Source: Owenia fusiformis
Taxonomy: Eukaryota
DNA: 64,000 nucleotides
Assembly: GCA_903813345.2 (NCBI GenBank)
Contig: CAIIXF020000001.1
Location: forward strand, 13,144,001-13,208,000
Direction: 5' to 3'
The notes beneath the pieces were generated by a model. The model searched no databases and was not told the DNA's origin. It saw nothing but the letters and a program-made list of their open reading frames with translations. The position numbers were made by a program, and so were the translations under genes. This document shows positions 1,282 through 32,116 of the stretch, one piece after another (the first letter of the stretch is position 1; each line of letters begins with the position of its first letter).

Positions 1282-1361
1282 GTTATGTACGGTCGGTTTT
1301 GGATACAGGGTTTATCCCTCGGGAAATATGTGTATATCCCTCGGTCCCTCGGGATATACAC
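1282..1361. repeat. Left part of a small fold-back (hairpin) repeat split by the giant transposon; the right part is at 32117-32175
   Basis: Removing 1362-32120 rejoins ...TTTATCCCTCGGGAAATATGTGTATATCCC...GGGATATACAC|ATATTTCCCTTGGGATAAAACCTGTATCCAAAACC into one imperfect palindrome. Confidence 0.75.
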
Positions 1362-1555
1362 AAGTCCTGACTATTTGATAAAGGAAAAAACCATTTGTTC
1401 CTTTTATTTGAGTCAAAAAATAGAAAAACACCATTGTAAAATGTAATTTTTGAAATGAGATACTTTATTTCAGATAGACAATTTGTAAATCAAATAGCAA
1501 CATTTATTTTATATTTGTAAATCAGTGTTAATACTTTAAGTTATTGCTTCCAATA
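1362..1555 (+). repeat. Left terminal inverted repeat of the giant transposon
   Basis: First 15 bp are identical to the reverse complement of 32102-32116. About 13 mismatches over the first ~129 bp by manual alignment, with weaker similarity out to ~190 bp. Confidence 0.9.
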
Positions 1556-1589
1556 TATGCTAAAAATGTATCAAAAAGGTGAATCTGTT

Positions 1590-2765
1590 GGTTATAGAAC
1601 TCTCTATACAAGAGATAGTCCTTCAAGTGTAGACATGTATAAAGAAGACCGAATAATTATCCGTATAGAAATTTCTATACGAAACAAGCTACTCATTCAT
1701 ATAGAAATTTCTATATTAGAGAAATGGTTGCCGTTAAGAAATGCTGCCTGTATAGAAATTTCTATAGCAAACTCGATGACTATACGTATAGAAATTTCTA
1801 TACGAGGCAAACTAACAATAGAAAAGATGCATACTTGGAAATGGTTACATTTCTTCATGTGTATAGAAATTTCTATAGCATACCCTATAACTGTCCGTAT
1901 AGAAATTTCTATACGAGGCAAGTTAACAATGTATATAAAAATATCCATACTGGGGAAATGGCTGCATGGCTGGCTGCATGGCTGGTATTCTCGATTACTA
2001 TTCGTATAGAAATTTCTATACGAGGCAAACTAACAATAGAAAAGATGCATACTTGGAAATGGTTACATTTCTTCATGTGTATAGAAATTTCTATAGCATA
2101 CCCTATAACTGTCCGTATAGAAATTTCTATACGAGGCAAGTTAACAATGTATATATAAATATCCATACTGGGGAAATGGCTGCATGGCTGGCTGCATGGC
2201 TGGTATTCTCGATTACTATTCGTATAGAAATTTCTATACGAGGCAAACTAACAATGTATATAGAAAGATGCATAGTTGGAAATGGTTGAACGTATCATGT
2301 GTATAGAAATTTCTATAGGATACCTTATAACTGTCCGTATAGAAATTTCTATACGAGGCAAACTAACAATGTATATAGAAAGATGCATACTTGGAAATTA
2401 TTGAATATATCATGTGTATAGAAATTTCTATAGCATACCCTATAACTGTCCGTATAGAAATTTCTATACGAGGCAAGCTAACAATGTGTATTAAAAATAT
2501 CCATACTAGGAAAATGGCTGCCCGTATAAAAAATTCTATAGCATATCCGATAACTGAAGCAAAGAAATTTCTATACGAGGCAAGTTAACAATGTTTATAG
2601 AAATATCTATACTAGGGGAATGACTGCCTGTATAGACATTTCTATTGCATACCCTACAATTGTCCGTATATAATTTTCTATACGAGGCAAGTTAACAATA
2701 TATATAGAAATATACGAGGCAAACTAACAATGTATTTAGAAATATGTATACTACGGAGATGGCTG
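1590..2765. repeat. Left subterminal array of palindromic boxes (C)GTATAGAAATTTCTATAC(G)
   Basis: 14 exact copies of the TAGAAATTTCTA core plus degenerate copies. Units are ~106-123 bp, with a near-identical 218-bp higher-order repeat (starts 1785, 2003, 2221). Confidence 0.95.
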
Positions 2766-3348
2766 ACCTCATGACAAGGCAGCCGGGATGAAAACAAAAA
2801 AGATAACAAGGTATCAAAGTAAGCAGGTACGAGGTACTTTATAAGCATTTCTTTAGCCGGTCTAGTGATCTGTTAATTGTGTCCGTTGCCCATTTTAGTG
2901 ATAAAGGTGGTGCCATGGTCCCTAATCTCCCTATTAGCCACTGCACTTAGCATGTCTAAAAATCTTTGTGAATAACTGTCACAGACATGTGGACTGAACC
3001 CTGCCATGATGAGAACTGCTATTCTAAAAAGACCTTACATCACTTCTTCAATATAAACATGTTCACATTAGACAAAATGGTCTGTATGAATTTGTATGTG
3101 GCCACGAATCACAACCATAATACTTTAATTTTAGGCTGCCTCTATCAGAATACAAAATGACTGTCTTTATAGAAATGTCCACATGAGACAAGATTGCGAT
3201 CCATAAATAAGTTTTCTAGTTGAACTACTTTCAGTAACCATGAATGTTCTTAATCAGTAATAACTACAACTTATACTAATATCCTATGTCGTATGTGCAG
3301 TTATCTTACACAACATTGGTCATTTATAGAATCATACTGCGCCAAATC

Positions 3349-6300
3349 TCAGCCTACCGTCACTTCCAAGACCGTTATATTACGACCAGATGTGAGCATC
3401 ATATCACGATGATATGGAATGTTGCAATGTTTTTGCGCTGATTTCAGAGAAATAGACTGATCGATGTGCTCTCGAATGTGTGCTTTCAATATTGCAAGAT
3501 AAAGTAGATACATCAGATTCATGTATTGGTATAAGAAGATGAAGTCGAAAATTAGATCAATGTAAACCTCGAGGTTGATAATAAAAAGTATCCAAATGTC
3601 CTTTGTTAGATCATATGGTATAAACTGTCCCCAGGGTTGAAAATGGAAATTTTCAGATCTGCAGCGATTCACTGAAAAAAGATAAACAAAGAATTATTAT
3701 AATGATTAGCTTCAACTAATGCCTTGAAAATAAGTACATGGGTGTGATGGGTTCCCATTGCAACTTCTTAAAGTTTGTTTCCACTTAAATATTGTAATTG
3801 AATGGCTATCACTCTGAAAATGGACTTCTTAAAAAACATATGGAGTGAATTCAATGATTCTAACCATTATATCTCTAAATAATATGTCTGTAACAAATAG
3901 GAATTGATAATATGGTAGTAATATAATGAAAGTAATGTTAGCTTTAAAGCTTTTGATTAGTAGTTTTCATTACTACATTATACAGGGCGTATCAAAAAAA
4001 TGCAACAAGTAATTATCTCGTAAAATTCCAAGACTACTGATGACTACATGAATTTCATTTGATGTACCATAAAGCCACGTCTCTCCTCTTTGCAATGATA
4101 TGTCATTCATTCACATGTGGTAATGGTTGGGTGAGAAATCCTTCCATTTGCACAGTGGGTCAAAATCGACTCTGGGCCAAGTTTTAGATATTGCAAAAAT
4201 CAGTGCAAGGGCTAATTGCCAATGGAAGTTCCTCTGACTTCAATTGTTGTGACTTTTTCTTTTGGAGCTATCTCAGGAGCATCTGTGCTCACAATTCCTC
4301 CACCAGATATTGCAAAACCTCGAGAAAGAATTGCCCATGGGCTGCTTTTCTCTGCTTTAACCCACGGATGACTCCATGCATGACATGGAGAGATTAGGGC
4401 TTCTTTATGTACAAAGAAGTGGTGGCAATTTTGTATAGGATGTATTCTTGCAAGAGTATGAGTATGAATACTTTACTGTCTATGCCACACCTGTCACACC
4501 TTCTTCCATTGGGCCCTATGCCCCTTGTACTGACTTTTGCAATGTTTAAAACTTGGGTCCGAGCTGAAATTTGACCCACTTTACAAAATTAATGGTTATT
4601 CGGCCAGCCATGACTCTCTGTGGATGAATGATATTCCATTGCAAAGAGGAGTAATTTGGCTTTTTGGTACATTGAATGAAAAGGATGCAGTCAGCATTGG
4701 TTTCATGTTTTCTTCCAATTTTGCATCGGGCTCCGTACACTGACTTTTGCGATGTTTATAACTTGGTCAAGAGCTAATTTTGGCCTACTTGGCAAATGGA
4801 ATGATTACTCGCCCAACCATGACCAAATATCAATGAATGATATATCAATGTAAAGAGGAGACACATGGCTTTATGGTGCATTGAATGAAATCAATGCTGT
4901 TATCACTGGTTTTGTGCTTTTCCGAGATAACAATCTGTTGCGTTTTTTTTGACACGCACTGTATTATCAAGAATTATAAAGCATACCGATTTTCTGCCTC
5001 AACTTCGTCGTTTTTCTTTTCCTTTGCACATTTTCCTCAGAGCAGGGCGTCCTTTTAGAAAAGGTTTTCTGAACTTCACCTAAATTATATGCAAAAATGA
5101 TTGATTTGAAATTAATTTAAAGTTGATTTTGAAAACTAACACATAGTTTAAATATATTTTTCATAATAGACTGAATCCTAGACGAAGTTTGTTCTATGCA
5201 TTCGTTTATCGACTCATGTTATATTTGAACTAATTTTTTGTACTCATCACGTGGTAAAATTCAAATTGAAAGGGAACATTTTTACCTTTATCTATACTGT
5301 TACTTGTTTTGCTTTGTCCCACTCTCCCACGAGATTGTTTTTTTCTTTTAGCAGATTTGTCTGGAAGCATGGATATAAGCCTGATAAATTATTAAATAGT
5401 TAAATAATACACAATACAAAACAAACCTTTCACGTGGAAATTTGATTAACACAATGTTTAGGAAAATAACTATAAGCCCATAAGGACATACCCTACGTGA
5501 TATTAGGCTACAATCACGTGTCACAATTACCCATTTGAAACAATAAGTGCCTATGTTCGAATAAGCATTTCTTCATTAATAAATCGAATATGCATGGTGT
5601 TTCATATATATGCACCCCATTAAAACTCATACATGTATCATCGCCAACCTGTCATGATTTGACTATCAAAGGGGAATAAATCTTTCGAAATATTTTATTT
5701 TAACATAGCGAATGTAAAATAACTATGAATTAATCTTTCCTAAAAAGTTGCAGTGTGATACGAGGCTACAATCACGTGTCTAAAAGAATGTTATGACTGA
5801 CAATCTTTTTAATACATGAAGTATTGATTTAATATACCTGTCCCTTGTGTGCCTCCCTTCCTTTTAGCAGCTGTCTTTTTACCCACCACAATCTAGAATG
5901 ATAATTCGAGGTCAAAATCAGATGACTATGAATGAGTTACAACAATCATTACATCATGTAACCTGTTAATGTAACGATATAATTATAAGATAAAATAGTT
6001 TTGTTTTATTGCAGAAATAGTTTAAACTATGCATTTCCATTTTCTTTCACCCTTCCCTTTGGCATTTGTGCTTATATATCCATATAACCAAGATATCTAA
6101 TCCTTTATGTTTAAATTAGAGTATTCTTATACAGGCATGCTAGTTATTTCGCAATTGCCAGACATTACTAATCTGTCGGCAAGCAGAATAATCATTAGTA
6201 TAATTATATTTACAATACAATGGTATACAGATGAAGAAATGAGAGGCTTGGGATACAGGGTATATCTTGATGAGAGGAATACAATATATCTGCCCAATTG

Positions 6301-9300
6301 ATCTAGGGTCGATTTATCTTGTGCGTTATTTACCTTTAGTACTACGGAATACAGGATATACATATGTACTTGTATGTATACATTTACCCAGCACACAAGT
6401 GCTCCTTTCTAATCACACCACTCACCGTTGGTTGTTCTTGTTCTATTTCTAACATTCTGACGACTTCGCTTGGAATGGCTGACTCTATTGTGGGTTGCTC
6501 CTCATGTGACAATTTGGGCAATCCGGCAAACATCCACTGTGTTTTGAATTTTAGCAGATACTGATTGATGAGTGCATCGGATGACAGAAAAGCTCGTATA
6601 CGCTTAATATACTTTTGCCACCAGATATATTGACTGGCGTCCCTCTGGTCACTGTACAATGGTCGTAAGAATCGTTGGTTTCGTTCTATCCCATCGATAT
6701 TCAATTTTTCAAAATTCGGTGTCTGCAAAACTGGCTCCCCTTTCGGAAGCGTTTTTAAAATGGAAGGAGCCTCAACCCACGGTTGCGTATGGAGCCCCTT
6801 ATACAGTAACTTCACGCCGTTTGAGGTCTTAATAAATTTGAAATGCAAAGGTTTTGTGTGGTGCTTTATCTCATTAAGATGTGGTTCTATCCACTTACGG
6901 AAATTGTAGACAACATTTATTCTTTGTCCGTTTTTCAGCAGATAAAGAAGATCATCCATTGTCTCTGCCTCTTGTTGTCTGAGACTATCAGCAATCTTGT
7001 GGAAATAGGAATCGATGTCCTCATGCGTGTGTCCCACTATCAAAAATGATAGTTCAATCTACAAATAAACCATGCGTTCACTGTTAAAAACGTAACTTAT
7101 GTAATGGACGGGGAAATGCATGGGCAAATGTTAGTTGTTCCAAACGTATTTGAGTTGAGATATTTTAAGGAGTAGAAATATTAATATTAGCATGACGATT
7201 GTGTATTTTTCAAACAATGATAATGAAAAAGAATTGCATCTTAAAGGAGTCGGAGATTGCAATTCTTTTTTCAACGAGTCTCTATGTGCGGTAACTCAAT
7301 AAATGCAGATACAGAACATACATTTCTGAAGAATAACTACAAGCATACTCTGGATTGTGACATCATTTTTGTACGATTTCTCAAATGCATAGTTTAACTG
7401 CTTATCGTCGGGGGAAATATACACATATTCTAGTCATCGATGGTATCCATTGGTTCGATTTTGAGTTAATTACCTCTTTAAAAACGCCATTCCTAATAAG
7501 GAGTTCACAGAATCCAAGCATGAATCGATTTTTGTTCTCCCTCCAACAGTTATCGGCTTGTAGATAAAGGGTGGGGGGCAATTTGTTACCCTAAAAATCA
7601 ACAATTAATGTACAAGTATTTGTACAAACACTACTATTTAAAACTGTCATGTAATTTACATTTATAGTCTAGGTTCTAACCCCTGTGATGCCCCACTGCC
7701 ACTAGACATTGGGTTGATAAAAAAGAAAAAAGGCTACGGTCTTCAAGCAAGACTAGATTAAAGAAAACATGTTTTTTTATGAATTGGTTATGAAAATCTT
7801 CAGCCTGTAGACAATTATACTATAGTATATATGATCACATACCATTTTTGCAGCGATTGTTTGCAACACGAGGAGAATAACGTTGATTGATAGGTTGGAA
7901 TCATGCGGGTATTCACAGGTGTCAATAAATGTCCTAAACAACCTATGGCCATGAGATATCACACCAGTGATATGCGTCTTTAGCAGGTCTCCCTGTCCAA
8001 CGGATTTAGCTTTAGAGCCTATAAGATGTGGGAGTGACGTTTTGCCTGAAGAAATATAAATAAATCATGCGAATGCGAAGTTCAGAGAGATATCTCAATT
8101 GGAATCTGTCATTTTTTATTATGACTCATTTTCATTTATGTGTATCGGACGATAACAATATACCTTTATGTTTGGTAATAAGCGTCGATAAAGCAAAACA
8201 GTATAGAGTATAATGCCCAGCTAATGCCTATGTCACATTTGCTCCCATTCATTGGCCGGCGCCCGGCCGATTGTCGTTTTTTGGTCAGAACTGATTTCAA
8301 CTTGCCTTAGATTGAACAAACATTTTTGTAAAGCATGAACAAGTTCTCATGAGCCTACACATGACCTCAAATTGAGATGTGACCTTCAATTTTGAACAAA
8401 ATATTCAATTGGCAATGTTCCGGCCGAATCGGAGCAAAGGTTACTCAAAGTTAGGCACGATATATACTATTTTTAATTTTTAACAATCTTTATAGCTTTC
8501 CGATTAGAATTCCGTTACGCGTTACTTCCATCGGATATGATTTATATGTTAAGTTGTGATTTTTAAGAAAAAATCGTGTACATCAAAATACGTATGGAAC
8601 TGTTACATGTAAATAATAAAAACTCTAAATTAATTTACCTTGATCCATGCCGTCAAAAATAATAGAGAGGTACTGTGTCGGTTCATTCCTCGATTGTTCC
8701 CGTTTATTATAATAATATTGCCTCTCCATCCTGTAAAATAAAATATAAATTGATAAATCCCCATTTTATATATTCGAAAATCATATTCAATATCATATTA
8801 ATTATATCTAATCGTATCAAATTGTATTAAATCGTTTTAAAAACGTAAATTAAAGCGTGGAGCGGAGATCGTGTCCATGTATTAAGAAACTTAAGAATAT
8901 GCGTTTTCAATACCTGGGTTTGATCTTTGTAAATGTGTCTGTGCTCGTTACAATGAGATAACAAAGATCGATAAGTTGTTTAGTAAAATAATAAAATATG
9001 ATATTTAATTGCAATCAACGAAACTCAGTGTTAGTTTGTTATTAAAACAACGGGCTGGTTGTTGAGAGTGGGTGCGTGGTTTTCGAATAATTAGATACAT
9101 GAAACCATATAGTCCTATGTACACAATGTACAGTAATGCCTGGGTAACATGTGCCCAGATTCATCGCCCGTCGCACGGCCGATTGAGTATTCTGTCCAAA
9201 ATTGTATAGTTTTGACCAATATACTCATTCGGCCGCGCCCGGGCCGATGAATCGGAGCAAATGTCACCAAGGCTAAGTCAGGTAATCAGACATTATACAT

Positions 9301-12300
9301 ATGATTTTTTGAATGTATTAGGTACGTATGAAGTCCTTTACTCCAATGTAAATTCATTCTGATAACATAATAGCATCTTTCTGTTTCACCTCTCAGGGCT
9401 GAGGAGAAATGAGATTTCATGGTTTACCATGGTGATGTAAATTTGATAATCAGAGATTGTTATGTGTAATGCGAAACGCATGCGGTTAAACCAGTGCATT
9501 CAATCCTTTAATCATATACAATACATTGATGGATCAAGATGCACGAAACATGTTTGTTCTTCAAATTCAAATAAAGATATATAGTCCAGGAGTAAACGGA
9601 TGAAAAACCTAAGAAATTTAGCTGGCCATAAATATTGTTTCAATGACAGAATAGATTATCTAAATGTTTCCGTTTGAAATTCTATATCTCTGTTCATATG
9701 AGTATACTAGTAGATAGAATATCTATATCAGCTACTTGAATGTGAAAGCAACTTTTAATACTTGTAGTTAAAATGCAGAGTTTTTACATTTCAATTAGAG
9801 CATAGGCGTGGGGGGGGGGGGGGGGGTTGCAATTGGTGATCGCCCCATTACCATGAGAAGAAAAGAGCTTTGAAATGATTTTTATTTGACGCTTCTAGCT
9901 CAATTTATTATAAAGGAAGTTGCATAAATTTTCGTGAAATTCAAGATAAATCTTAATTGTTGGCTTTTTATGCCACAATCGCATCCCCTGACTGAAAATG
10001 GATTTTTTGGCGATCGCACAAGCCCCCCCCCCCCCCAATTTAATTGTGGAAAATGTCAAACATTTTTTTCCATGATTACTTGTCAAGCGTAGGTTCTATG
10101 CGGAGGATGAGTAAGGACCCCGATTAGCAATATACTCATCTAATAATATAACCACATTTAAGGCAAACATTGCTTCTAAAATATGTGAACGAAATACGCC
10201 GATGATGAATAAAATACTATAATGCTCGGTATGCCTATCTACAAAATTGACGAAAAGTAAAAATATAAAATAAATATATAAATGGCACACGCTTCTAAGG
10301 ATGAGTAAAATGTCCCTATATTACGCAAGCGAAATCAGTTAATATTAATATAATACAAGTGACAATAAATAAATTAATTAATTGGTCATCATTATCTACT
10401 GAATCAAAGGATATAGAAATTACTCTGTGCTTGGAGAGATGCAATCGGTTACCTGACCAACTCTGAATTCGAATGAATGGGTATTAAAATTGACCAAATC
10501 GAAACCAATTCAAGACAACGCAACTTTTGCGCATGCACTACTATAATATGTTATTCAAATGGGAATTGACCTCCAGTTGACATTTCAATATTTGTGTTAA
10601 TTTCGTGAAGTCCTACCAAAATCAAAGACATAACGAAATGTCCTAGGAAAGCGTACTTGTTACTCGATATAGATAAAGGACCAGGCTTACTGTTATCACC
10701 TTTGACGAGAAGAATTTTCTTCAGAGGTTTATTGACGAATTGCATCTTGCAGCTGTTGTGATTAGAAATAGTCTAAAAAGTGTACGTGCGATGATAGCTC
10801 GAGTTTTTTGCCGAAACCTAATTAACCTAGCTATCATAAAATGAATTGTCTGTAAAATGCAATTTTCGAATAACAAATTGAACTAAGGAACAAAGTTACC
10901 AGCAATTTCGCTCGGGGACTTATTTACCCTAACGATCAGCAATCATTTATTCCAATGACTTAAAAGTGTAAATACTTACATTTGCCTATTGTTATGCTCG
11001 TTGAGTGCCTTTTTGATAAGTCTTCTTCGTTCTGGGTTCAGAGTTCTCTCAAGGCGTCTGTTTAGACTCACACATTTATCACATTTAGTGAAACAGTTTG
11101 TCTGAAATATAAACACGATTTTACTTGATATATATTAATCAACATACAAATTCCTGACAACGAACTTCACAAAGGATTTCAATGAGCCACTTTACTAAAC
11201 AACTTTAACCAGCCTAGGAAATCTTTCTATATATCTAAATTAACGAGATTTTTTCAGCGCATTTTTTAAATTTATGGATCCGTCACTAAAATTGTATGCT
11301 CTTTGAGATGCTGTAATCAATAGTAACACAAGTTACCAAACTCCAGAAAGAAACTGATTTTACAGTATGGTTCACAGCTAAATGATCTCACCCTGTTGTA
11401 AACTTAAGGTTCACATGTAAAGCTAAAGATTAATTACTAAGCTTATTGAAAGCTTATTCTGTGCTATATTATATAAATCACGGGTGACTTTTTACATTTC
11501 TAATGATTTTGCCATACTGCTATATTATACTGAGAAGGCCTATCTCACCATGGTAAAAAGGCCAAATATCAAATGTAAAATAAATAGCGGTCATATTTCA
11601 GTACCCTTTCATTTGTGTTTTGAGAAAGTGAACCATGATTTTGAAAATGATATGAATAACATTGCTAAATGTAACGCATTTTGACTAGTTTTTATTACTA
11701 GTTGCTGAAAATCGCAAGAAGAAAGCTGCCATTTTAAAATCGACCTTTTATATCTTTAGACCTTCAGTGTGATAAAAAAGCTATTGAAATTAAAAAACAT
11801 TATAGCAAATTATAGAGAATTTCTAGCACTTGTGATAGAATGGATTGCCTAGCTTCCCCTTCGTGAATATGCCTGTTTAGGCTAACAGAAGTATGTCGCG
11901 AATAAATTACTCAGTTTTATTTGCACCCCGGGTGTTGCACTAATAATATGATATTTTGATGTACCATAAATAATTTTAGCCGCGCATATCTGGTTAGTAT
12001 TACAATACCAAATTATGTAACATGTGAATTTGGAGTTTCAGTAAGTTTAAATATTACATTTAGATGGATTATTCACTTGCAAAACTTTCAAAATCATAAG
12101 TATTCAGATTGAAATAACTTTACAACTTAGTAGAGAATGTGGTAAAGAATTAATTAATTATTACAAACCCCTTTATAATAAGGATAACATGACCTAATTC
12201 TTGTTTGGGCAAGGTAAAACTTTATTTTGTCTAAAAATTGTTTACAAGTAAACAAAGCTAGTTCCTACTCCCTACATGTACGTACACTACAATTAGTTCT

Positions 12301-18900: not shown

Positions 18901-21900
18901 TTGTCCCCAGTTTCGTCCGACGTGTATTAGCGTTTGCTTACATGCATTGACATTATAAGGTACAAGGGGCGATCAAGAAATAACGTTAGTATAACCCAAA
19001 CTCAGAAAATAATCACCCATTTATCCCTAATGATGATATTTATTAATTTTACAGGCGCTTCAGTATCGGCGTCACATACAAGTGCGTCACATTCAAGTGC
19101 GTCAGATTTTAATAGAAAATTATGATAATTATATCTGATTTGGCTATAATAGAGGACCACCTCTTAGGTATGTTACATACGACCACCAGACTCAGTAATC
19201 CGATAAGGCTAAACAATCCTAAGTAATGGCCATAAATCAGCAACCATATAGCACAAAGTACCAGACTAATTAAAACCTGCTGCTGCTATCAGTGTAGCAC
19301 TGGTTTCTCCTGCGATAACAGTAACATTAACACCATCATTCAGTGACATTTCATTAATATCAATTAAAAATTAACTCTATATGTGTTTATTTTTTAACCT
19401 TATTTATAATAAACAATTATTTGTTGTTTACTTGACAACAAACAACTGATCTTTTGACAATCCTTTATTTTCATTAGTTTATAAATGATTTTTGTATTGT
19501 ATAATCATGTTCGTATCAAGTCTTAAAACGGGGAGCGTGACCGTTGAACTCGCGGGGTAAGCTACAACACCACTTCATAAAGTCCATTGTTCTCCAACTG
19601 TGACGTCTTTATATCCATTTCAACTAGATAAAATGGCAGATAATTCAACATTTTCGATTCGGGTGCTAAACTTCAGTACGGCACAATTATGTAAGCAATA
19701 ATATGAATATCGTTCCCAATATGTTCGAGCCTAAAGGGAAAATCTCTAAAAAATTCAAAGAAAAACGGGCCTTTCGCGTCTAACATTGCACTTTGATGTC
19801 TCAAATGGTATTAGCCACGTGCACACATAAAGCACTTTATCATAATACGAAGTGAGGCAATGGACGATGTGGCAGCATACGGTATAACGCCTGGCGAACG
19901 ATGGTAAAGGTACGGAACAACAAAAGGAATTTATGTGCTTGATTTTGATGAACTAATGCATGCTATCCGATATATATATTAACTTGGAACTCATGCAGGT
20001 GTTACCCTGGTTATGGCCAATCCACCAAGATGTTGTACACCATAAATGCATTTTGTTTTGCTCAATCGCATAAGACAGGGGATGGTCTCGCTCGGGATAT
20101 TTCCTGGGGTATATCAGAATTTCCCCCACGAAAGACAATTAAGAAGACAAATTCTAACACTCAAATTACCCTCTGATGTACTGGGAGTGTAATGGGGGTA
20201 TCAGCAAGTACTCAACACCATAATTAACAGTAAAAAAATATGACACCTATTCGGACTTTCTTTTTTCTGGTGAACCCCACAAAATGTCCCACGCGAAACC
20301 ATCGCTGATTTTAATAGCTATAGATAACTTGATCTATCTTCAACATATACGCCGATGTGCGCTTATATGTCAAAATAATTTATCATTAATGTATCTCACA
20401 CTCATATTTGCAACCGGAGTTTCTTGCTCATAATTAAGCCCATTTGAGTATGGTAAGAGGGGTAAATCAAGAATAACAACGTAAGTGATTTCAAATGAAC
20501 GCCAATTTGAGAAAAGATTAATCACAAACCACTATGGCTAATCTATTTTGACATTTATTTTTCATAGCAAGTGACTGTGATTTATATTCGGATGAAATCA
20601 TTTTGCTTCTAGACACCGGCTAGAACTATTTTATGTTATTTTAAAGTACAGAAAAAGTACTTCTTAGAATTAGCAAATATTTTAATAGATTTTCAAAAAT
20701 CCATTAGATTTATCATCAATTTTCAACCTATTGTAATTGAGGAAAAAATTGGGAAAGTTTGGAGGCATAGAAAATGAAGTCAATTTACATTTCCATCAAT
20801 ATCATAAGTACTGTATTTTCCTAGTACATAGTAGGTTATGTAAATAAAAATTCAAATATAAAGAGGCTTCAACACGTAGTTCAGTTGGGGAGAGGTGTTA
20901 AGGTTGCCAAATTATTTTTATTTTATCAATTTTATTTCTAAACTCTTTGGTTCCATAATGGTCCAGGAGTAAACGAATGAAACACATTAAATTCTCAGAA
21001 ATTTAGCTGGCCATAAATATTGTTTCAATGACAGAACAGATTATCTTAATGTTTCAGTTTGAAATTCTATATCTCTGTTCATATGAGTACACTAGTAGAT
21101 AGGATATCTGTATCAGCTATTTGAATGTGAAAGCAACATTTAATTCTTGTAGTTCAATGCAGAGTTTTTACATTTCAATTAGACCATAGGCATAGCCATG
21201 GGGGGGGGTGCAATTGGTGATCGCACCCCCCCCCCCCCCCATAACCAATAAAATATAACCATGAGAAGAAAAGAGCTTTAAATTAAATGCTTTTTATTTG
21301 AAGCTTCTAGCTCAATTTATTATGAAGGAAGTTGCATACTTTTTTGTAAAATTCAAGATAAATCTTAATTGTTGGGTTCTTATGCCACAATCGCATCTCC
21401 TGACTGAAAATGGATTTTTTTGGCGATCGCATCTGAAAGCTGGCTATGCCCCTGTAGACATTTCCATTTTTAAACTTCATATCCTGCAAATTCCTATATA
21501 TTATATATAAAAAATATCTATATATCAAGCAATAAAATAAATAAAAAAGTTCTATCTGCACAATATCACATTGTGATCTAGATAGATAACTAGCTTGACT
21601 GACTGATATTCATTTGCTTTCATCATATTATGTGGCTTACAATAGTCAGGATTTTGTGACTCGGAGGGGGTGGTTCATTTTTTAAATTCATGCAAAATAC
21701 TTCCCCACCCTGCCCACACTCAAATCACCTCATTTTACAATAAGTAATAAAGGTATCATAATTTGATCATTATGGAATTTATTTTATGAAAGTTTAAGAT
21801 GCAGAAATTGTTCACAAATTGTGAACTTTAGAAATCAAGTGCATCAATGAAAATATATACATGAAATTATATTCATTAATTTTGCACTAACAAGACTTGC

Positions 21901-24900
21901 GAATGGTCATTAAAAATAAAAGTATGTGTATCTTGCATCATTATGAAATAAAATCACAACCATTTTTAGGGATAAATATGAAGTCCCATGCGCAAAAGTT
22001 GTCAAAACATTTTCAAAGTCGTGAATTACTTACAACTCATCTCTAGACTTAGATACCCTTTGAGACAGCAATCCATTTAGGCTCATTCTATTTTCAAGAT
22101 GACACCTAAATTCAACTTAGTTTTGAAGTGTGAACTAGGCATGAAGTATAAACTACCCTAATAAATTAATTATCTCATGTTTATTTGATTTTAACAATGG
22201 CCATTGTCTCTATCAAAAATATAATTATACCAAATGAAATTTGGTACTCCATTTTCCATTTTAGAATATTTAACTTGAAACTGGAGTAAATAGTATATCT
22301 GTCTGTGGGTAGTATAGTACATGTATTGTATACTAGTAACATCTTATTTAGTCTTGAATACTTCAAAGAACACTAGATATTTGCCTTTAAAAATACATGG
22401 AAACAGACTGCAATCTGTCTATGAGAGGAGGACAGTGAGTTCACTCTAGACTAAAACCAAGAAGACAAACCCATAACTTACATCTTATCTAAATAATCTG
22501 TCAACTTAAACTCTAACGAGTTTTCCAGAGCTGATCAGATTTGATCAGAACTTTGCAGTTATCTGGAGAACTAATAACATTCTATGTTGAATTTCGAATC
22601 TAAACTAAAATGCCTCGTGGCTTGCGCTTGACATCTGAGGCACATCGCCACGTGGTATCTCAACTTACCAAACCAGATGTGAAGAGGAAACGTCGCTCTA
22701 TAACAATACTACAAATCTTATTTAATGGGTAAGATTCTTTAGTGAGCCAATGTGTGATATATTATCGCTGTCACTATCGAAGACCGTAAAGAACCATACT
22801 TTAGAAAATTACTTAAAACAGACATGGATTTTTACAGCAAGCATATCATATTAAGAGCTTGCGCTAATTGTTTGGGTTTGAATACTGATCTTGGAAGGAG
22901 ACGACTGTCACCTGGGTTTTGTAATATTGTCTGTCAGAAAAATATACCATTGCATTGAACAGCGCTTATTTACGTGTCCATCCTTAATAATGTTTGTTTA
23001 TAAATAAAGTTGACCTGATTAGTTCATGTGGCCATAGAGGCACAGGTTGGTGTTGTGAAATACAACGCTAAACCATTACAACAGATTACAGGTTGATTCA
23101 GTGAGCTTTAAATCAAGTACCCTAACAAAAGGCCAAAACTTTATGGAGAGATAAGTGTGCAGTGTGAGATAATGACACTTGACATAAATACCTTGAAAAT
23201 AGTATAATCACTGTGACTGATCATGAAATAATTTAACGACTTCAATCTACAACAGCTACTTGACACCTATCTGTAAAGGAATCTCTAAGTATCTCTGTTT
23301 AATGAAACAGCACAGCAGGCATGCTACATTGGATACCCCATGAAGCACCTAGCACACAATTCTAATTAGACACATTCAATTCAATTAATTCCTTTATAAT
23401 TTCATAAAATACACATATAAAGGTTTAACAGGTGACATCATCTCTGATGTTTATACCCGTACATATGTTAAAGCATTATATTACGAATATTAAGAACAAG
23501 GTTATGTGAAGTGATCAATCCCCACTCAACCATATCAAGATTGGGTTCGGTCTAAAAGAAAATCTAAGAGGGAGTGTGGGTGGAGGAGGTGCAGCACAGA
23601 TATAAAGCTAAGAAGGCGTGATTATGTGGTCGTAGTGGCGTGGTTTTCGGCTCTTGCTTCTATACGCAATCAGGCCCTTGGTCGGGGGGGGGGGGGGCTT
23701 AAGGGGTTGGGGGGGGGGGGGGTCGTGCGAACATCCCCTGGAAAAAATCGTCTAAATCATTTTCATCAATTTTGAAGTGATTTTCGGCATATTCAAACAA
23801 AATTGTCAAAAGTAAACCTCCTGATATTTTTAAGAAATCGGCCCCCCATTGGCTCATTCCGGCTACGGGCCTGTGTAATCGAACTTCTCGTGAGATTTTA
23901 CGACAACTGCTACCTCGATTGAGCATTTCTAGTTTGAATCTATTATTATTAATCTAAAACTCGATTATTCTAATTTGTACACATTTCAAGTGCATCAGAT
24001 CAGATAACCAACCAGAACGTTTCTTAAACTAACTTCATGCATAATCTAAACAGGTGGCATGTGGGTGCGTTTACAATCTTGAACAGACCTAATGCCTTGG
24101 TCACATTTGCTCCGATTTTCACTACGGCGCCCGGCCGATTGACTATTTTGTTCAAAATTGAATACTATATTGAGCAAAACACTCAATCGGCCGGGCCCCG
24201 GCCGATGGATCGAAGCAAATGTGACTTCGGGCATTACCAGATTAACCAAGTTTTACTCTGGTCAGATATAAACATTAAACATATGTGTTTATTCGTTTCA
24301 TGATGGTCTCGTTGCATTTTTCAAAACTATTATTTCAGATCCAAACGGTCCCAAAAGATGGACACGCTGAATCATCGATGAATTCAGACTTACAAACAGG
24401 CAAAGAAGTCAATGGAGAAACTGATCTTGCGGTTAAATCACATCTTATTGGTATGTTCCCTGGTCATTTTGTTTGGATTTTGAAATGTTTATTTTCGAAG
24501 GAACAGTGTATATTGTACTTAATACAAATGAAAATAATTCTACACTTTTTCAATGTGCTTTCTACTGCTCTACTGCTTTCTACTGACTGTTGTTTCATAT
24601 TGTTTAATAATAATAGGACAAACGGAAACTATATACATTTTGATAATTTTCTTACTTTTTTCTTTTGATCTAAAATTATTACGGGGAATGAAGTTTCATC
24701 TGTCTTATGCCGAAATATCGACTCATGCATAGCATTCTTGGTCTTACATCAAATTCATCACCAAAGTCCCATGTCCATTACTCTGAACCTTCACTATTTA
24801 GGTGACTTCATCACCGTCCCGATAGAATGTTTGATATCGCCATCAGAAGTCAACAAAGTGAGAGATCTACACCAATGGCAAGTTGATAAGATTATGAAGT

Positions 24901-27900
24901 CCATCGAGGCAAGGCCAGATGCAAGCTTTACTGTAATGTTGGGGAACATCGTGTCTCCCAAGCCCATCAACAAAACTGCTGTGGAGGGAGGCCTTCACAA
25001 AATTGAAGTTATTGGAGGACATCATACCCTAGCAGCGCTCAAGAAGCTGCACGAAAAAGACGGTTGCAGTGATGAGTCTAAATACAGCAAATGGTGTATT
25101 AAGGTATACTAAAATGTAAAGAATAAAGCCTTTCTCAAGTCACAATGTAATGGTTTAAAGTATTTTCATAATATATAATCAAAGCATATAATAGTATATA
25201 ATATAATCATTTACTTTTTATACCCAGCGAGCACATATTACAAACCCCATCAATTATTATCATCATCGCACAATACAAGAAAGCAAAGTGAATGTTTTTC
25301 TTGTTAGAATCGACCAAACATTAATGTGATTTTTATTCAAATATCTTACATATTTTAAAAATCTACAATACTGACGTTTGAGAGTATAATGTAATCCTCA
25401 GGTGTATTGGGGCCTGTCTAACACGCAAATCTTAAAACTTGGCATGGACCACAATGAGGTGATGGGAATGCATCTCAAGAAGACCTACGTGGACATGGTC
25501 AAACTTTTTAGAAGGCAACTTATGAAGATTCTGGATACGGACGTTGTGCCAGATGTATTGCCAAAACCAGTGAACGCGTTGTGGAGGAATACGCTATGCT
25601 CTATATTAAGGATAGAGGTAAACTATGATTATGAATATGATCAAATAGCATTCGATAAGGAACAAAACCCAATAAAAGTGTTTAATATAATGTTGTCTTA
25701 AAAAATAGTTCAATTCGCTCATCAACTCTGATTTTGAGAGAACGCGAATTGAAAAGAATAAAGTGAAACAGAACTTGATAAATCTAGACCATATACTAGA
25801 ATGACAATAAAAGTGCAATTTAACAATTACATTGTTGGAATATATTTTGAAAGGGAAAGTATCGTGGATGCAGCAGTGATACTTCTTTTATATGTTTCAT
25901 AATCAACATTCAAAGTGCATTATGTTACCAAATGATGCAATCTCACGTTTTCAGTAAGTTATCAAGAAGTTTAAGCTTGCATGTAAAATCTAAATGCCAA
26001 CCTATACGTATGACCAATCGCCCATAGAAATGCATCGCTTTAATATGTTACGTTCAGGTTTAGGTTGTGAGAAACATTGCAAGCTTGAACTCCCTATTGT
26101 ATCTTTCTACACGTTCATGTTATATTTTAAGGACAAGCAGAAACTCTCTAGTAGTTTCCAGAACTACACACGGATAGCAGAGCTTCCGAATCATGTATGG
26201 GACGTGGTAAACACCTTCCTGAGTAAATGGGAGAATGGGGACATTAAGGGACAACCATCTGCACCTTTAAAGCAAACGGCAATGATAAATGTTACAAGGG
26301 ACTGCTGGCAACACCTTGAAAAGGCAAGCAATGGAGAGATAACATACAAAGAGTTTCTCGCTATCAAGAAACCTGGCCAGAAAAAAAGGTTGGTGTAAAC
26401 ATTTTTTTATGAAAAGTCTTTCATTGCAGTCTTACATTGTAATCTGATCATGTGTTCTATGATGCAGGATATTTCCAACATAAAATACCATTTTTTCACC
26501 CCAATGTAAGCCTAGATGTTGAGCCAGGTCATGTCATGTCATTCGTTCATTTATTGTTTTATGCCACATATGCCCAATTTTTATACAATCGATATTCTAT
26601 TGCATTGTTTTCAGTTGTTTTGCACTGTATATATTCGTTTATTTCAGATCTAATTCTTCAAGAGCACAGAATACAAAGAAGGCAGATGTGGAGGATAGTG
26701 ACGGATGCATTGATAGCGTGAACCATACGGTAAACATTTGCAATTACCGCTGTCATATACCGCTGTCATATTTCCCACTCTCCTTTTGGTCTACATATAA
26801 CATGCAGTTAAATTATACATGTAAACAAACACCCGAATATGGAATGGTACTTGTGGAACAGTTCACAGCATTTTCTTTTAAATGGGTAGATTTGCATTGC
26901 TCATTATAAGCTTTGCAACATTAGGACTTAAAATGTATTTATTTTAGAGTGACAACGCGCAACAATCAACTGGAACGAAAACAAATTCGAAAGATACATT
27001 GGTTCATGCCCTCCAGTCTGAACTAAAGAAAAAAATATCTACCGTCAAAAAGGTAAGCTTTACATATTTTTGAAGATAAATAAAAGAAAAACGTATAACA
27101 TGTACATTTTCTGACAAAAATACATCAACATCCTTCAAGTAGTTATTGTCAACATTTAAAGTCTCGAACATTTATAACTTTATCATTTTACTAACCTTAA
27201 TTCCATGTCTACTATTAGTAGCACAGAAACGGTGAGAAAACATGGTTCAACTTAATTTTTCTTGACAGTTTACCTTTAACGACACTATTTTTAACAGCAT
27301 ATCATTTTTCCGATTTTCAGTTAGAGAGGCAGTTAGATGAAGCATTGGAGAGGGCGTGTACTGCGGAAAATATAGCCAGTGATCTCGAATTGAAGTTGAC
27401 CAAAGTCAAAGGAAAACACGAAAGGGTATGTTCTATCTATAGGAACAATGAAACATTAATATTACTGAAATATCTTGTCATCCAATTCACGGATAATGTG
27501 ATTGTAACAATTAGTATGATATCAAGCTGAATGAGTTTAAAAGTGTACGATAAAAATGATTTCAATGCCGTATAAGTATATGCTATTCCACATAAGGTAT
27601 CAACGTATCCTGTTTTGTCCTTTGTTTATGTAAATGAAAATGATCGTATCATTATTTGCAGAACGTTGATGAAATCAAAAGTCAGCATATTGCAGTGGAA
27701 GTAGAATTGCGTAGAAAGTTGAAGGACACACGTGAGTGTATTGAGAAGAACGCAACGAGTTATTCACAAAGGGTGGCCTCATTAGAACACAAGCTGCGAC
27801 AGGTAATCTTTGGATCACCATTGGCTTTCATTTTGATCGAAAAGTGGTCAGCTATCACTGATGGATCTAGCCCCCTTCTTAAATGAACCCAAGAAGCGCG

Positions 27901-30653
27901 GATTTATTATCTCATTTTGCATTTGCTCTTCCCTTCCTTTGTTAGCTTCTGGATCCGCCAGTGGCTATTGATAATAAAATCCTTTCTATTGCAGAGAATG
28001 TAAACACTGATTCAATTATTAGGAGGCTTTACAAATAGTCAGATTGGGAGCTAGGGTTTTCAAATTGTTGAAGGGAATTGTATGTTTACTGCATACATTT
28101 TCCGCACCTATAATATACATGGATCATTTTTATAACTTCCAGATGAGAGAAAATACTATCATTCCAAATGCAGATACGTTTACTTTCACTCCCACTCTAG
28201 AGGATGATGAGACGCTATCTGTGGAAATACCTTTAGGTAACAATCTTACTATAGTTTCTCAAACTGTGCAACGTTTTTTTGTCAAACTAGTCTGATCCAA
28301 TCCATCTTTTACAAGAATCCAATTTTTAATCTCTACCTAGTTTAAGCGACATTTGAAATTTAAAATACTGCTTCAGGTACACCTCGGGGGTACACCTGTA
28401 CACATTTTTTAAATGCACTGTAACTTCGGAATCATCAGAAAGCAAGTAATAATATAAAACAGTGTCGATACATTAGAGCATTTGTTTTGGTATTTATTGA
28501 ACGACCCTCGTATATATTATATAATAATAAAGATCGATTACATTTCAGCTAACTTGGGCCAAGAGGATGAAGATATACCACCATTAGATAAACGGGGTAA
28601 GTATCTAAATAAAGTGAAGTCCAACCTCCTACATTTTAACTGTTAAGATCTGCTCCAATACAAAACTACACTGTTACACAACCTTCATAGACCACGTGTT
28701 ATAAAATCATAAAAAGTGAAATATATTTTCTTATATTGGCCAGATAATATTTTATTTTATCCCATGGTTACAAGGATAAAGATCGAATATCAGGTGAAGA
28801 TATATTTGATATGTGGATCAAGATATCATATTTTAGCAAAAAATCCAAAAAAACATCGAATATCACTTCTCGAAAATTGATATTCGATGGTTTAAAAAGT
28901 AATATTCGATCGATTCAAAAGTGATATTCGATGGTTTAGAATTTTTTCGCTGGGTTAAGACTTCCCATGGAATAAACGGACAGTCCAATGGTTTTTCAAA
29001 AATATCAATTATATCCACTCAGGGATATCGATATCTTCACTCATTATATTCGCTGCGCTCACTCATGAAGATATCAGTATCCACTCATCGATATATCCAC
29101 TCATGGATATAAATGATATTTTTTCAAAACCATAGGATATTCCTATATTATTAGACTTATTTTAATTTGTATAACTATCATATACATATGGGTAATATGA
29201 ATAGAAAACCACTAAAACTGATGAATATTCAAGTTTAACAATGAGTTGAAGAAAATAGAAGACCGCTTATTTTCCTACTTTTCTTTATATTCTACCATTT
29301 TCTAGCCTGAGCAATGTCTTAGTATGCAAATAAAGTGAATATGATGGTCCAAACTTGGAAAGTCGTGTCTTGACAAAAAAAGAAATAAAACTTCAAATAT
29401 ACATTCAATTTGTATTGTCCTTATCTTCCATGAATATAATGAACTGATATGGCATGCTAGAAAATTATGCGACCCCTAGGTTATTTTTCTTTCCAACAAA
29501 ACCATCTGAAAAATTCTTTGCTTGGAATATGACAAGTATATTTCTTGATGAGTTGTCTCTCTAAATATGCTTTGCTTTTATAATTTCAGGATATTGCCCA
29601 ATTGTTTCTTTATGTTCTTTATGTGTACTAAAATTGTCAACAATTTATTTGCAGATTCCAAAAGGAAGTCAGTACAAGAAATATCTAAAGTTTGCAGTTC
29701 AAGTAAGTAGTCCTCTATTTCTCAAAAGTATGGCTTCAAAAAAGGTAATTTTCTGAGGAAGCACACACCAGTTGGAAAATGTGGTTCGTATTAATTATAC
29801 TGATGCCTTAGGACGGATCATATGCAACTGGTCAAAACGAGATCAAAATTGCCACCTTTTTTATATCAACATATAGCAGGGTATAATTTAAAGCAGAATG
29901 AGAACAATACAGTTTATGTATGTTGTTTGGAAAGATTATGTTATCTAAGCTTAACAGTGAAGCAAAAGTATATTGTGATTATATTCTCCAAAATAAACAT
30001 ATAAATGAAAATAAATGAACACGGTAGTAGTCGTGTTAAAGAGAAAAATATTGATCGAATATACACATTATATCATGAGAAATCGTTACATGAACATATG
30101 TTATATCTGTATACAATGTATTTTAGAGAAGCGAGCGACCAGCACATCTTCTGGAGAGATACAACCAAAGGTAAATCAGGTGTAACCACATACAAGTTAA
30201 ATTCTCAATAAGGTGCTATAACCAATTCCACATTTAACACAAGATTATAAGTTTATTTTACGTTTTATGTATGTAATTTATGTATAACCTTTATGTTAGT
30301 TTTGACGACTCGAGAGCGTCCATGTTATATGATCGTCCTTCTCGTTCCAGGTCATATGCATTAGATATGAAAGAGATATCTACTTTGCTGTGTTAAAAGG
30401 AGACAAGATCACATATTGCACTCGCAGAATTGCAGCAAAAGCAGACATTAACAACGTTGGAAAATTGACGCCACCAATGCTGAAGGTCAATGAATTTGAC
30501 AAGGCAGACGTGTGCGATGTGTCACCTAATATGTATCGAATCATAGACAATAAATACGTTAAGTCTGTTACTAAGACAATTGTATTCACTTTCCCTCATT
30601 TCACTTTCCCTCAGTTTTTATCTTATTTATCTTCTTTGGTTTGTCAACTTTAG
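15974..30653 (+). CDS. Transposon accessory protein with a ParB/Sulfiredoxin-like domain and coiled coil (about 743 aa, 16 exons)
   Basis: Phase-compatible GT-AG exons: 15974-16111, 16949-17111, 17283-17356, 24339-24450, 24802-25103, 25402-25617, 26132-26388, 26648-26729, 26948-27052, 27321-27425, 27662-27802, 28143-28236, 28549-28596, 29655-29702, 30127-30170, 30351-30653 (2232 nt, no internal stop). ParB-N-like pattern: VPIECLISP..VRDLHQWQVDKIMKSI...IEVIGGHHTLAALKKL...CIKVYWGLSNTQILKLGMDHN. Heptad-rich exons at 26948-27802. The domain call is by eye and the exact 3' end is uncertain. Confidence 0.75.
16178..16326. mobile_element. Palindromic MITE family copy 4
   Basis: ATGCCTGGGTCATATTTGCTCCGATTCATCGGCCAGCGCC...GGCGCTGGCCGATGAATCTGAGCAAATGTGACCCGGGCAT. 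Confidence 0.8.
17762..18923. mobile_element. Probable old non-autonomous TIR element in an intron
   Basis: Imperfect inverted ends ACGT...CTGGGGACAATTT / AAATTGTCCCCAG...ACGT around an AT-rich non-coding interior. Confidence 0.45.
20961..21454 (+). repeat. Dispersed repeat copy B, including a hAT-like MITE (21186-21454) with CATAGGCATAGCCA / TGGCTATGCCCCTG ends
   Basis: Collinear with 9584-10020. The MITE end also matches 63245-63330 in reverse orientation. Confidence 0.8.
23671..23873. mobile_element. Small MITE with CAGGCCC...GGGCCTG ends and poly-G tracts
   Basis: Inverted ends CAGGCCCTTGGTCGG / CCGGCTACGGGCCTG. The flanks CGCAAT and TGTAAT may be a decayed TSD. Confidence 0.55.
24090..24237. 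mobile_element. Palindromic MITE family copy 5
   Basis: TAATGCCTTGGTCACATTTGCTCCGAT...ATCGAAGCAAATGTGACTTCGGGCATTA. Confidence 0.8.
28971..29152. repeat. Fold-back repeat with internal ATATCCACTCA sub-repeats
   Basis: Inverted arms ATGGTTTTTCAAAAATATCAATTATATCC / GGATATAAATGATATTTTTTCAAAACCAT. Confidence 0.6.
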
Positions 30654-31194
30654 TAGCATAGTTACTTTTCATTGGACATATTTTGTTAAAAGTGAACAAT
30701 TTAAAAGTACGTTAAAAGTAAGAATTGTTCATACATTAAATGTGCAATGAATCATTAGTTTTAATTTTCCAGAAGAAGGGATTTTGGTGTTAAAGTGATA
30801 TATTTGCAGAAGCAACAATCTCATTATCTTACAAATAAAACAAAATGCAGTTTAAAAGTTTGTCTTTCACTGTGCTCTTTCTAAGTGAAAGCGGGGGGGG
30901 ATTCCAAAATGCCATGAATTCAGCTTATCATGAATTCAGATATTTCAATGACTATTAATCAGAGAAAACTGGAACTATACAGGTAAAATCTATCTATTTT
31001 TCTGAGGTTTGACAGAAAATCACCAACAAAACAATTGAGAACAAAGCAAAAGTGTGTATCATGTTGAGCATGTTCAAACGTAGGATTTTGATGTGCAGAA
31101 ACTGTTCATTGACAGGTTCATCATATACTTAGAATGTTCTATGAACTATGTAAAATTAGCTCCTTTGAGAATGCATGTTTTAGTTACACACATT

Positions 31195-31865
31195 ACCTGT
31201 ATAGATCTTCCTAGATGAAATTCTAGGGACAGGTGTCGGGTATGCTATAGAAATTTCTATACAGGCAGCCATTTCTCTAGTATAATTTTTTTACAGAAAC
31301 TTGTTAGCTTACCTCCTATAGAAATTTCTATACGGATAGTTATCGGATATGCTATAGAAATTTCTATACAGGCAACCATTCCTTTAGTATAGAAATTGTT
31401 AGCTTGCCTCGTTTAGAATTTCCCATATAGACAATTATTGGGTAGCCTATACAGGCAACCATTCCTTTAGTATAGAAATCTCCATAGAAAATGTTACCTT
31501 GCGTATAGAAATTTCTATATGGACAGTTTTCGGGTATACCATAAAAATTCCCCTTGTAAATTTATTACTATTACATTGTCAGCTTACCTCGTATAGAAAT
31601 TTCTATACGGACAGGTATCGGGGATGCTATAGAAATTTCTATACAGGCAGCCATTATCCTTGTAAAGATATTTCTATATACATTGTCAGCTTGCAATCGC
31701 CTCGTATAGAAATTTCTATACGAACATGCACAGTTATCGAATTCGGAGGCACTATAGAAATGTATCTGCATGCAGCCATTTCTCTAGCTAATAGGAGATA
31801 CTTTATGAGTGGGTAGCTTGTTTCGTATAGAAATTTCTATACGGACAGTTATTGTTCGCTATAGT
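31195..31865. repeat. Right subterminal array of palindromic boxes, inverted relative to the left array
   Basis: 8 exact TAGAAATTTCTA cores. Spacer motifs (CAGGCAGCCATTT, TTGTTAGCTTGCCTCG) are reverse complements of the left-array spacers. Confidence 0.95.
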
Positions 31866-31934
31866 TATTATTATTCATGGGGTCATTTCTTCTGGATTGA
31901 AATCTGTGCTTTTAAATTGATTTTTAGGAAACAG

Positions 31935-32116
31935 TATATCGACAGCAATAACTTAGTGTACACATATAAAGTAAATGTTATTGTTCAATTTACAAATTGT
32001 TTATCTGAAATAAAGCAAATCATTTTTAAAATTACATTTTACTATGGTATTTTTCTATTTTTGGACTGAAATTAAAGGAACAAATGTTTTTTTCCTTTAT
32101 TAAATAGTCAGGACTT
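31935..32116 (-). repeat. Right terminal inverted repeat of the giant transposon
   Basis: Reverse complement aligns to 1362-1555 and is followed by the TSD ACAC. Confidence 0.9.

Follow-up and report, generated by a model that had tools for sequence, protein, structure and literature searches.

The question raised by this locus is whether the 30.8-kb segment at positions 1362 to 32116 of a stretch of Owenia fusiformis DNA is a single mobile element with two genes of its own, as an initial annotation made from the sequence had proposed, and whether the second of these genes has a part in transposition. The stretch (assembly GCA_903813345.2, contig CAIIXF020000001.1, positions 13,144,001 to 13,208,000 of the forward strand; 64,000 nucleotides) is called the window below, and all positions are those of the window unless another locus is named. 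Based on its ends, its insertion site and the coding capacity of its interior, we consider it likely that the segment represents a single copy of a cut-and-paste transposon, intact in structure and probably autonomous, that combines a transposase carrying the Pfam domain DUF7869 with a conserved partner gene.

Ends, target site and subterminal arrays

The ends of the element are made up of the following features.

1282-1333: uninterrupted arm of a palindromic host repeat, the insertion target (partner arm at 32117-32169)
1358-1361: left copy of the target-site duplication (TSD), ACAC; the single-copy target is intact in the other arm of the host repeat
1362-1519, plus strand: left terminal inverted repeat (TIR), 158 nt, 87%, starting with AAGTCCTGAC
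1593-2682: left subterminal array, in which the 16-bp palindrome TATAGAAATTTCTATA occurs 20 times (14 exact), as pairs with 36-bp spacing
31246-31841: right subterminal array, mirroring the left one, with 10 copies of the same palindrome, 8 of them exact
31959-32116, minus strand: right TIR, 158 nt, 87%, finishing with GTCAGGACTT
32117-32120: right copy of the TSD, ACAC

The two TIR arms were found by a repeat search of the window and are 87% complementary over their 158 nt, and inward of them a weaker inverted similarity extends over about 1 kb (1362-2339 versus 32116-31224, 66.5% over 1013 columns). Within the window the terminal 29-mer was confined to the two element ends (0 + 1 mismatch; 0 expected). 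The ACAC present on both flanks is a 4-bp TSD; a TSD of 5 bp (TACAC) would be possible solely with asymmetric ends. Four matching base pairs would mean little by themselves; in this case, however, the target sequence provides an independent check. On either side of the element lies one arm of a palindromic host repeat (1282-1333 versus 32169-32117, 88.7% over 53), and the 20-mer GGGATATACACATATTTCCC, which is left after deletion of the element and one ACAC, is present exactly in the uninterrupted arm (1321-1340, minus strand). Additionally, in two raw RNA runs, each sampled at about 6 in 100 reads, 69 (run X21) and 75 (run X22) reads ended at 32116 with a consensus that restores GGGATATACACATATTTCCC. 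These reads derive from other, uninterrupted copies of the high-copy host repeat. The intact 20-mer in the other arm and the reads that rebuild it together indicate that the element was inserted precisely in one arm with duplication of 4 bp. The empty-site sequence that the initial annotation had proposed to look for in other haplotypes was thus found at paralogous places (the other repeat arm and other repeat copies); no allelic empty site was seen in the window and reads covered.

The target repeat itself (1282-1361 and 32117-32179) is high-copy, transcribed and palindromic, resembling a foldback or miniature inverted-repeat transposable element (MITE). Its summed contig word depth was about 70,000 in DNA run X1, where such depths are relative and are not copy numbers, as the stretch has no flanking single-copy baseline. 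In each RNA run a joint of the 'opposite strands' type was observed at 32116 with 40-41 first-mate-plus reads, and about 210 reads diverged past 32179.

That the element flanks themselves form an inverted repeat, and that any 4-bp match has a chance of 1 in 256, could also be taken to mean that the ends are part of a larger inverted duplication or foldback of the host repeat, with ACAC present by chance. We regard this as highly improbable. Without the element the host palindrome lacks nothing: the 20-mer is uninterrupted in its left arm, and reads of other copies of the repeat cross the site unbroken. The 158-nt TIR and the 16-bp palindrome were found nowhere else in the 64 kb, and between the ends lies a gene for a DDE/D transposase.

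With up to two mismatches allowed, the palindrome TATAGAAATTTCTATA occurs 30 times in the window as compared to 0.21 expected by chance, 22 of these sites being exact (14 left and 8 right). All lie in the two arrays and within about 1.3 kb of the element ends, and none was detected elsewhere in the window at this stringency. The flanking contexts are of two subtypes that alternate at the 36-bp spacing, and the right array is the left one reverse-complemented. Thus both the exact ends with their TSD and the mirror-image arrays described in the initial annotation were confirmed. The related loci collected numbered 94, of which 80 came from metagenomes and 14 from a pattern scan of prokaryote-labelled genome bins with the transposase alignment. 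Among related loci of at least 2.5 kb, a perfect 12-nt palindrome was present three or more times in only 3 of 65 (0 in shuffles), which is too few to call palindromic arrays a family trait. In these three distant DUF7869 loci (L009, 588-3086; L008; L077) the palindrome occurs 3-5 times around the transposase gene, which hints that subterminal palindromic sites recur in the DUF7869 family.

The transposase gene and the partner gene

Two genes diverge from a point at about 14.6-16.0 kb. For the gene on the minus strand, full-length homologues were mapped back by tblastn and splice sites were picked by frame and homology, giving a homology-guided model of ten exons (A to J, from 13719 to 3349) with AG/GT at all junctions, in front of which a putative first exon can be placed.

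14321-14609, minus strand: putative first coding exon of the transposase, ATG at 14609, donor GTGAGT (model only)
13121-13719, minus strand: exon A, cysteine-rich N-terminal region common to homologues
10980-11101, minus strand: exon B
8639-8730, minus strand: exon C, DGMDQ (first catalytic D)
7843-8045, minus strand: exon D, DUF7869 positions 5-54
7474-7590, minus strand: exon E, LQADNC (second catalytic D)
6426-7058, minus strand: exon F, DUF7869 positions 93-188, GHTHEDID (third acidic motif)
5838-5892, minus strand: exon G
5286-5360, minus strand: exon H
4987-5079, minus strand: exon I
3349-3671, minus strand: exon J, the last, with the stop; matches the annotated protein P0002

Three consecutive exons match DUF7869 (PF25273) at positions 5-54, 55-93 and 93-188 of 192, with expectation values (E) of 5e-14, 7e-18 and 7e-25 and scores of 52.9, 65.4 and 88.2 bits, all above the gathering cut-off of 26 bits. 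Exons A to J form an open frame of 776 residues, counted from the exon-A reading frame, in which DGMDQ, ADNC and GHTHEDID are all kept. The spliced product is identical at 185 of 185 residues to P0002, a 'partial' protein of Owenia fusiformis at NCBI that is recorded on a contig of 62,201,769 bp. Addition of the first exon (14321-14609, joined to the acceptor at 13719) would plausibly extend the protein to about 866 residues in 11 exons; splice signals and frame speak for this exon, for which neither a homologue nor RNA support was found.

In the family alignment A1 the acidic positions were D378 (25 of 29 sequences), D462 (27 of 28), E501 (56 of 57) and D502 (57 of 57). A DDD triad could be formed by D378, D462 and the invariant D502, and judging from the alignment the neighbouring E501 could equally be the third residue. 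The gene encodes an RNase H-like DDE/D core with all three acidic motifs. When exon F was compared by HMMER with 1.84 billion representatives, 356 proteins matched at E<=1e-3, of which 142 at 1e-10 and 18 at 1e-30, and relatives were confirmed in 547 stretches of metagenomes; a word-indexed search among longer proteins with a transposase exon gave no match. Ten family members were examined, the named sources being amphioxus, a nemertean, a hemichordate, two bivalve species and Owenia fusiformis. This widespread domain is thereby linked to an entire, precisely delimited element with its TSD, in support of DUF7869 being a transposase.

Some DUF7869 genes have an OTU-like cysteine protease for a neighbour. 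In the bivalve protein P0034 it is fused at the N terminus, as read from the sequence and the UniRef name, and on a metagenome contig (L034:711-4283, minus strand) a gene for such a protease lies divergent beside the DUF7869 gene (Pfam E 7e-7). The OTU protease may be a second, different companion of DUF7869 transposases.

The partner gene occupies the plus strand.

14610-15973: interval between the divergent start codons, presumed bidirectional promoter
15974-16111, plus strand: partner exon 1 (ATG)
16949-17111, plus strand: exon 2
17283-17356, plus strand: exon 3
24339-24450, plus strand: exon 4, behind a 7-kb intron with high-copy repeats
24802-25103, plus strand: exon 5, conserved domain with GGHHTLAALKKL (a ParB/sulfiredoxin-like lead)
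25402-25617, plus strand: probable extra in-frame exon, 72 residues, phase 0-0, AG/GT; skipped in P0151
26132-26388, plus strand: exon 6
26648-26729, plus strand: exon 7
26948-27052, plus strand: exon 8
27321-27425, plus strand: exon 9
28143-28236, plus strand: exon 10
28549-28596, plus strand: exon 11
30127-30185, plus strand: exon 12, with a stop at 30183-30185 unless the donor that follows 30171 is spliced

The 12 exons are all bounded by GT-AG and encode 512 residues, the frame closing at 30185. The additional exon at 25402-25617 is likely real, giving 13 exons and 584 residues, because the corresponding sequence is contiguous with exon 5 in three homologues of other genomes. In a word-indexed protein search exon 5 matched one protein, P0151 (1597 residues; 'unnamed protein product [Owenia fusiformis]', on a contig of 38,876,441 bp), and the search with the partner exon among proteins of near lengths gave no match. 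Residues 1-508 of P0151 map to the twelve exons from 15974 to 30171 with 500 of 508 identical (98.4%). The donor after 30171 is used in P0151 to splice into a TRPC gene, and the remainder of the protein, which contains TRP_2, Ion_trans and ankyrin domains, is a complete TRPC channel whose own start is probably a Met at about residue 514. Nothing of the channel part was found in the window, and the 32 kb downstream of the partner gene hold no open reading frame (ORF) of at least 110 residues. From the eight residue differences, the contig other than that of P0002 and the channel part missing from the window, we infer that P0151 comes from a different chromosome, on which the element, or at minimum its partner gene, is present once more, with read-through into an adjacent host gene.

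P0151 reflects either read-through transcription or a chimeric gene model. It exemplifies an annotation error in which a copy of a transposon gene is recorded as the N-terminal 508 residues of a TRPC channel, which may mislead comparative studies. The expectation that standard annotation would overlook the element was borne out by this fusion and by the 'partial' record of P0002.

The coding frames run through 23-24 exons with no stop and no broken splice site, which agrees with the two divergent, open multi-exon genes reported initially. The genes were also said to fill nearly the whole interior; this holds for the gene spans, which make up 83% of the element, but the exons amount to about 4.1-4.4 kb, or only about 14%. 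Several intron segments had a summed contig word depth of 8,000-155,000 in the DNA run, compared to 310-395 in unique parts (relative values, as above), and are nested high-copy repeats. Long introns holding such repeats account for much of the 30.8 kb, rather than added coding capacity. Very high depth was observed at 15735-16401, 17736-19069, 20404-21737, 23739-24405, about 25994-26100 and 28408-29741. A short ORF motif, QNTQSAG..MNRSKCDPG, is repeated at 9042-9224, 16127-16356 and 24046-24303, and one repeat family is present in an intron of each gene (9581-10018 and 20958-21431, 84% over 478 columns). The last transposase intron contains, at 3994-4949, a pair of 217-nt inverted repeats (78%) with internal sub-repeats, probably a nested MITE or foldback element.

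Conservation of the pairing and the nature of the partner

Homologues of the partner were identified beside distant DUF7869 genes in two other genomes. At L085 (genome G001, contig of 733 kb) and L084 (G002, contig of 589 kb) a partner homologue is encoded on the other strand from the DUF7869 gene, at a distance of 2.4-3 kb upstream of it, that is, head-to-head as in the window. The partner domain of the window matches that of G001 with E 1.4e-7 (28% over 125 residues), and the domains of G001 and G002 match with E 7e-15 (35% over 142 residues); the downstream portions of the G001 and G002 partner genes also match mutually (E 1e-9). The transposases of these loci are only 24-59% identical by segment to that of the window, which indicates that the pairing of partner and transposase is old. 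Additionally, a match to the partner's second half was observed in divergent orientation at the metagenome locus L021. The recurrence of the layout in G001 and G002, with distant homologues of both genes, makes it probable that the second gene is a dedicated partner of the transposase lineage and not cargo. The initial annotation had already called it a dedicated accessory gene, and this is supported by these homologues and by the near-identical copy recorded on another chromosome-sized contig.

The G001 locus has a candidate pair of TIRs, each about 60 bp long, at 17885-17943 and 28783-28843 (L103 and L104, contig G001:C12). The two-gene locus is flanked there by long tandem arrays (16310-17660 and 29040-29500), with a further tandem array near the 3' end of the transposase (26408-27273). 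Among ten candidate inverted pairs inspected in relatives, one had a clean 4-bp TSD, namely L003, a distant relative with 22-bp TIRs flanked by AAAA.

Searches of Pfam, NCBIfam and PADLOC gave no match to the partner at E<=10 (for Pfam with the window exons, P0151 and three relatives). The conserved domain resembles by eye the N-domain of ParB and sulfiredoxin. PHROG gave two matches only, both to 'ParB-like partition protein' families and below threshold (E 0.28 and 0.33), and no match was obtained when the partner relatives were searched against PHROGs. With the five-row profile A3, four of five matches in PDB were sulfiredoxins, again below threshold (E 1.6-1.9) and aligned on the GG-H-(T/R) helix; phmmer with the partner exon and profile A2 found no match in PDB, and tblastn of the partner gave none against phages and plasmids. 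In the region of the nucleotide-binding motif GxxR / GGxHR the window has GGHHT, lacking the Arg, whereas G002 has GGLHT, G001 GGNNSR and L112, a further ORF of G001, GGVHR. In L112 this reads GGVHRYLA, the nearest in the partner family to the GGxHR of sulfiredoxin and ParB.

In a protein atlas based on a language model the conserved region was nearest to DUF3723 clusters (0.94 and 0.93; 11 of 30 hits), and further near clusters had ParB_N in 11-18% of their members (at 0.90) or DUF6551 in 84%. The likeness to DUF3723 is a lead only, with 160-161 of 256 features in common, under the 170 typical of same-family hits; the Pfam model of DUF3723 (PF12520) did not match the partner at E<=10. A fold predicted from the single exon was of low confidence (predicted local distance difference test, pLDDT, 60.5) and matched generic alpha/beta sandwiches only. 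On these weak but concordant hints, the chances that the conserved domain is ParB/sulfiredoxin-like are about evenly balanced, and the protein is not assigned to either family.

Several observations weigh against an intact, autonomous element with a dedicated partner. The two TIR arms differ at 13% of positions, and the copy number of at least two is deduced from protein records and the lengths of the contigs recorded for them; in the window, reads and protein records covered, no second full copy with both ends was seen. As to activity, the RNA depth over unique coding bins was 0-1.8 in the two runs, and no splice joint over the listing threshold was among the rows listed for them; a weak plus-strand signal was observed over 26.4-28.4 kb, provided the library is of the usual stranded type. 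As to the pairing, a partner-like match at E<1e-3 was present in 4 of the 94 related loci and missing from 90, and with P0151 as query the partner was not found in the 80 metagenome loci (best E 0.33). At the metagenome locus L005 the partner-like match lies downstream of the transposase and is convergent. The ORF L112 (10224-10772, minus strand) stands in G001 with no DUF7869 gene within 10 kb. No TSD matching the candidate TIRs of G001 was found, and the OTU proteases fused to or adjoining other DUF7869 genes count against a strict pairing rule. The records of G001 and G002 are titled as bacterial metagenome-assembled genomes (MAGs; bins of 16 and 8 Mb), yet their genes are interrupted in eukaryotic fashion. 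All 14 prokaryote-labelled loci (L081-L094) are in MAGs or uncultured bins, mostly on short contigs, and are probably eukaryotic DNA in bacterial bins.

The divergence of the TIR arms and the very low RNA depth would also fit an old, immobile relic, or genes under domestication, in which the intact frames reflect host-level selection or a recent decay that has so far spared the exons. The several high-copy repeats in the introns, suggesting time for nested insertions, and the public annotation of parts of the element as host genes point in the same direction. We nevertheless find this unlikely, as the two TSD copies agree perfectly and the host repeat is interrupted with single-base precision, the coding sequence is open throughout with every splice site in place, and the second copy of the partner gene is nearly identical in protein. 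Imperfect TIR arms are normal among functional elements.

Alternatively, the transposon may be real but its plus-strand gene may have been captured or transduplicated from the host and travel as a passenger that takes no part in transposition. The lack of a Pfam, NCBIfam or PADLOC family would agree with this, as would the 90 loci without a partner-like match, the variable companions of DUF7869 genes and the solo ORF in G001; the latter, beside which G001 holds two more partner-like fragments, shows that the partner gene family occurs away from transposases too. Absence from the 90 loci is, however, weak evidence, since most of them are contigs of a few kb. The head-to-head arrangement recurs in G001 and G002 despite the distance between the transposases, and again in L021, which makes independent capture in one orientation unlikely; moreover, all 12 exons lie inside the TIRs and the 508 residues recur at a second place in the genome. 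A passenger is thus quite unlikely in our estimate, and we retain the reading of an intact transposon with a partner of its own.

Proposed mechanism and comparison with known systems

What we infer about current activity, about the factor that binds the palindromes and about the role of the partner can be put together as a model. Transposase multimers would bind the 158-bp TIRs and the 30 palindromic 16-bp sites, perhaps via the cysteine-rich N-terminal region, and would pair the ends and then excise the element. Reinsertion through a 4-bp staggered cut would give the ACAC duplication. The partner may aid in DNA-end recognition or end bridging, or may act as a regulator, by analogy with TNPA of En/Spm. 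In a more far-reaching version, DUF7869 with its head-to-head partner would represent a eukaryotic cut-and-paste lineage that has not been described so far and that may fall outside Sola1-3. Here a ParB/sulfiredoxin-like partner would bind the 16-bp palindromes, as ParB does with palindromic parS sites, and bridge the ends of the very long element, and an 'end-organising' module would be shared with the DUF3723 genes of Starships; we offer this as a conjecture that is rather unlikely to hold as a whole. The conserved partner gene, nameless in the libraries, provides a concrete system for the study of end pairing in TIR elements of very great length. If active, a cut-and-paste element of 30 kb would be of interest for large-cargo gene-transfer vectors.

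En/Spm (CACTA) and PIF/Harbinger are two-gene systems with 3-bp TSDs. Their accessory proteins are TNPA, which attaches to motifs repeated near the En/Spm ends and joins these ends, and a Myb/SANT-like protein. Elements of 10-20 kb exist, and a CACTA element of 20.5 kb is on record in soybean. The present element is similar in having a transposase plus a second element-encoded protein, and TNPA serves as the working analogy for its arrays. It differs in that both the transposase families and the accessory proteins are unrelated, and in its 4-bp TSD.

With elements of the Sola superfamily (Sola1, Sola2 and Sola3; PMC10741241, PMC3845634, PMC4455052), in which we know of no conserved second gene, it shares a 4-bp TSD, long idiosyncratic TIRs, a DDD-compatible triad, a multi-exon gene and an occurrence in marine invertebrates. 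On these described features it may be a Sola member; the superfamily is defined by significant similarity among the Sola1, Sola2 and Sola3 transposases. In the available part of PMC10741241 (citing Bao 2009), Sola is characterized by a DDD transposase, a 4-bp TSD, TIRs of 11-1124 bp and sizes of mostly 2-9 kb, with some members above 15 kb. The earlier statement that Sola members are usually a few kb was therefore overstated, and at 30.8 kb the element is still above the reported sizes. In Majorek 2014 and two Repbase papers Sola appears in lists alone. The hallmark of Sola1 is a target preference for AWWT/AWDT, according to the part of PMC3845634 available; unlike this, the target here is ACAC, in a single insertion.

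As described in the available part of PMC9587614 (Kojima and Bao 2022), several Kolobok lineages have accessory proteins (Kol0 with KolX, KolobokE, KolobokH, KolobokP). On the same basis, the element resembles Kolobok as a cut-and-paste DDD/E system of marine invertebrates, annelids included, with a lineage-specific second protein and a 4-bp TSD, and differs in its TSD sequence ACAC, in its DUF7869 transposase and in a partner that is not KolX, an exonuclease, RecQ or a His-Me nuclease. Since two-protein cut-and-paste elements are documented there, the architecture is not new in kind, and the initial suggestion that it was undescribed has to be narrowed to this transposase and partner. The open-access literature searched holds no mention of DUF7869 and nothing relevant on a ParB-like protein with a DNA transposon, and within it the combination of a DUF7869 transposase with this partner, as well as the conservation of the pairing, appears to be undescribed.

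Finally, DUF3723 is a conserved accessory gene with an unexplained role in the giant Starship transposons of fungi, according to the part of PMC9156397 (Gluck-Thaler et al. 2022) available. As far as that text goes, the two systems are alike in that a gene of uncharacterised function travels with a large mobile element, and they differ in the enzyme, which is a tyrosine recombinase in Starships and a DDE/D enzyme in the element from Owenia fusiformis.

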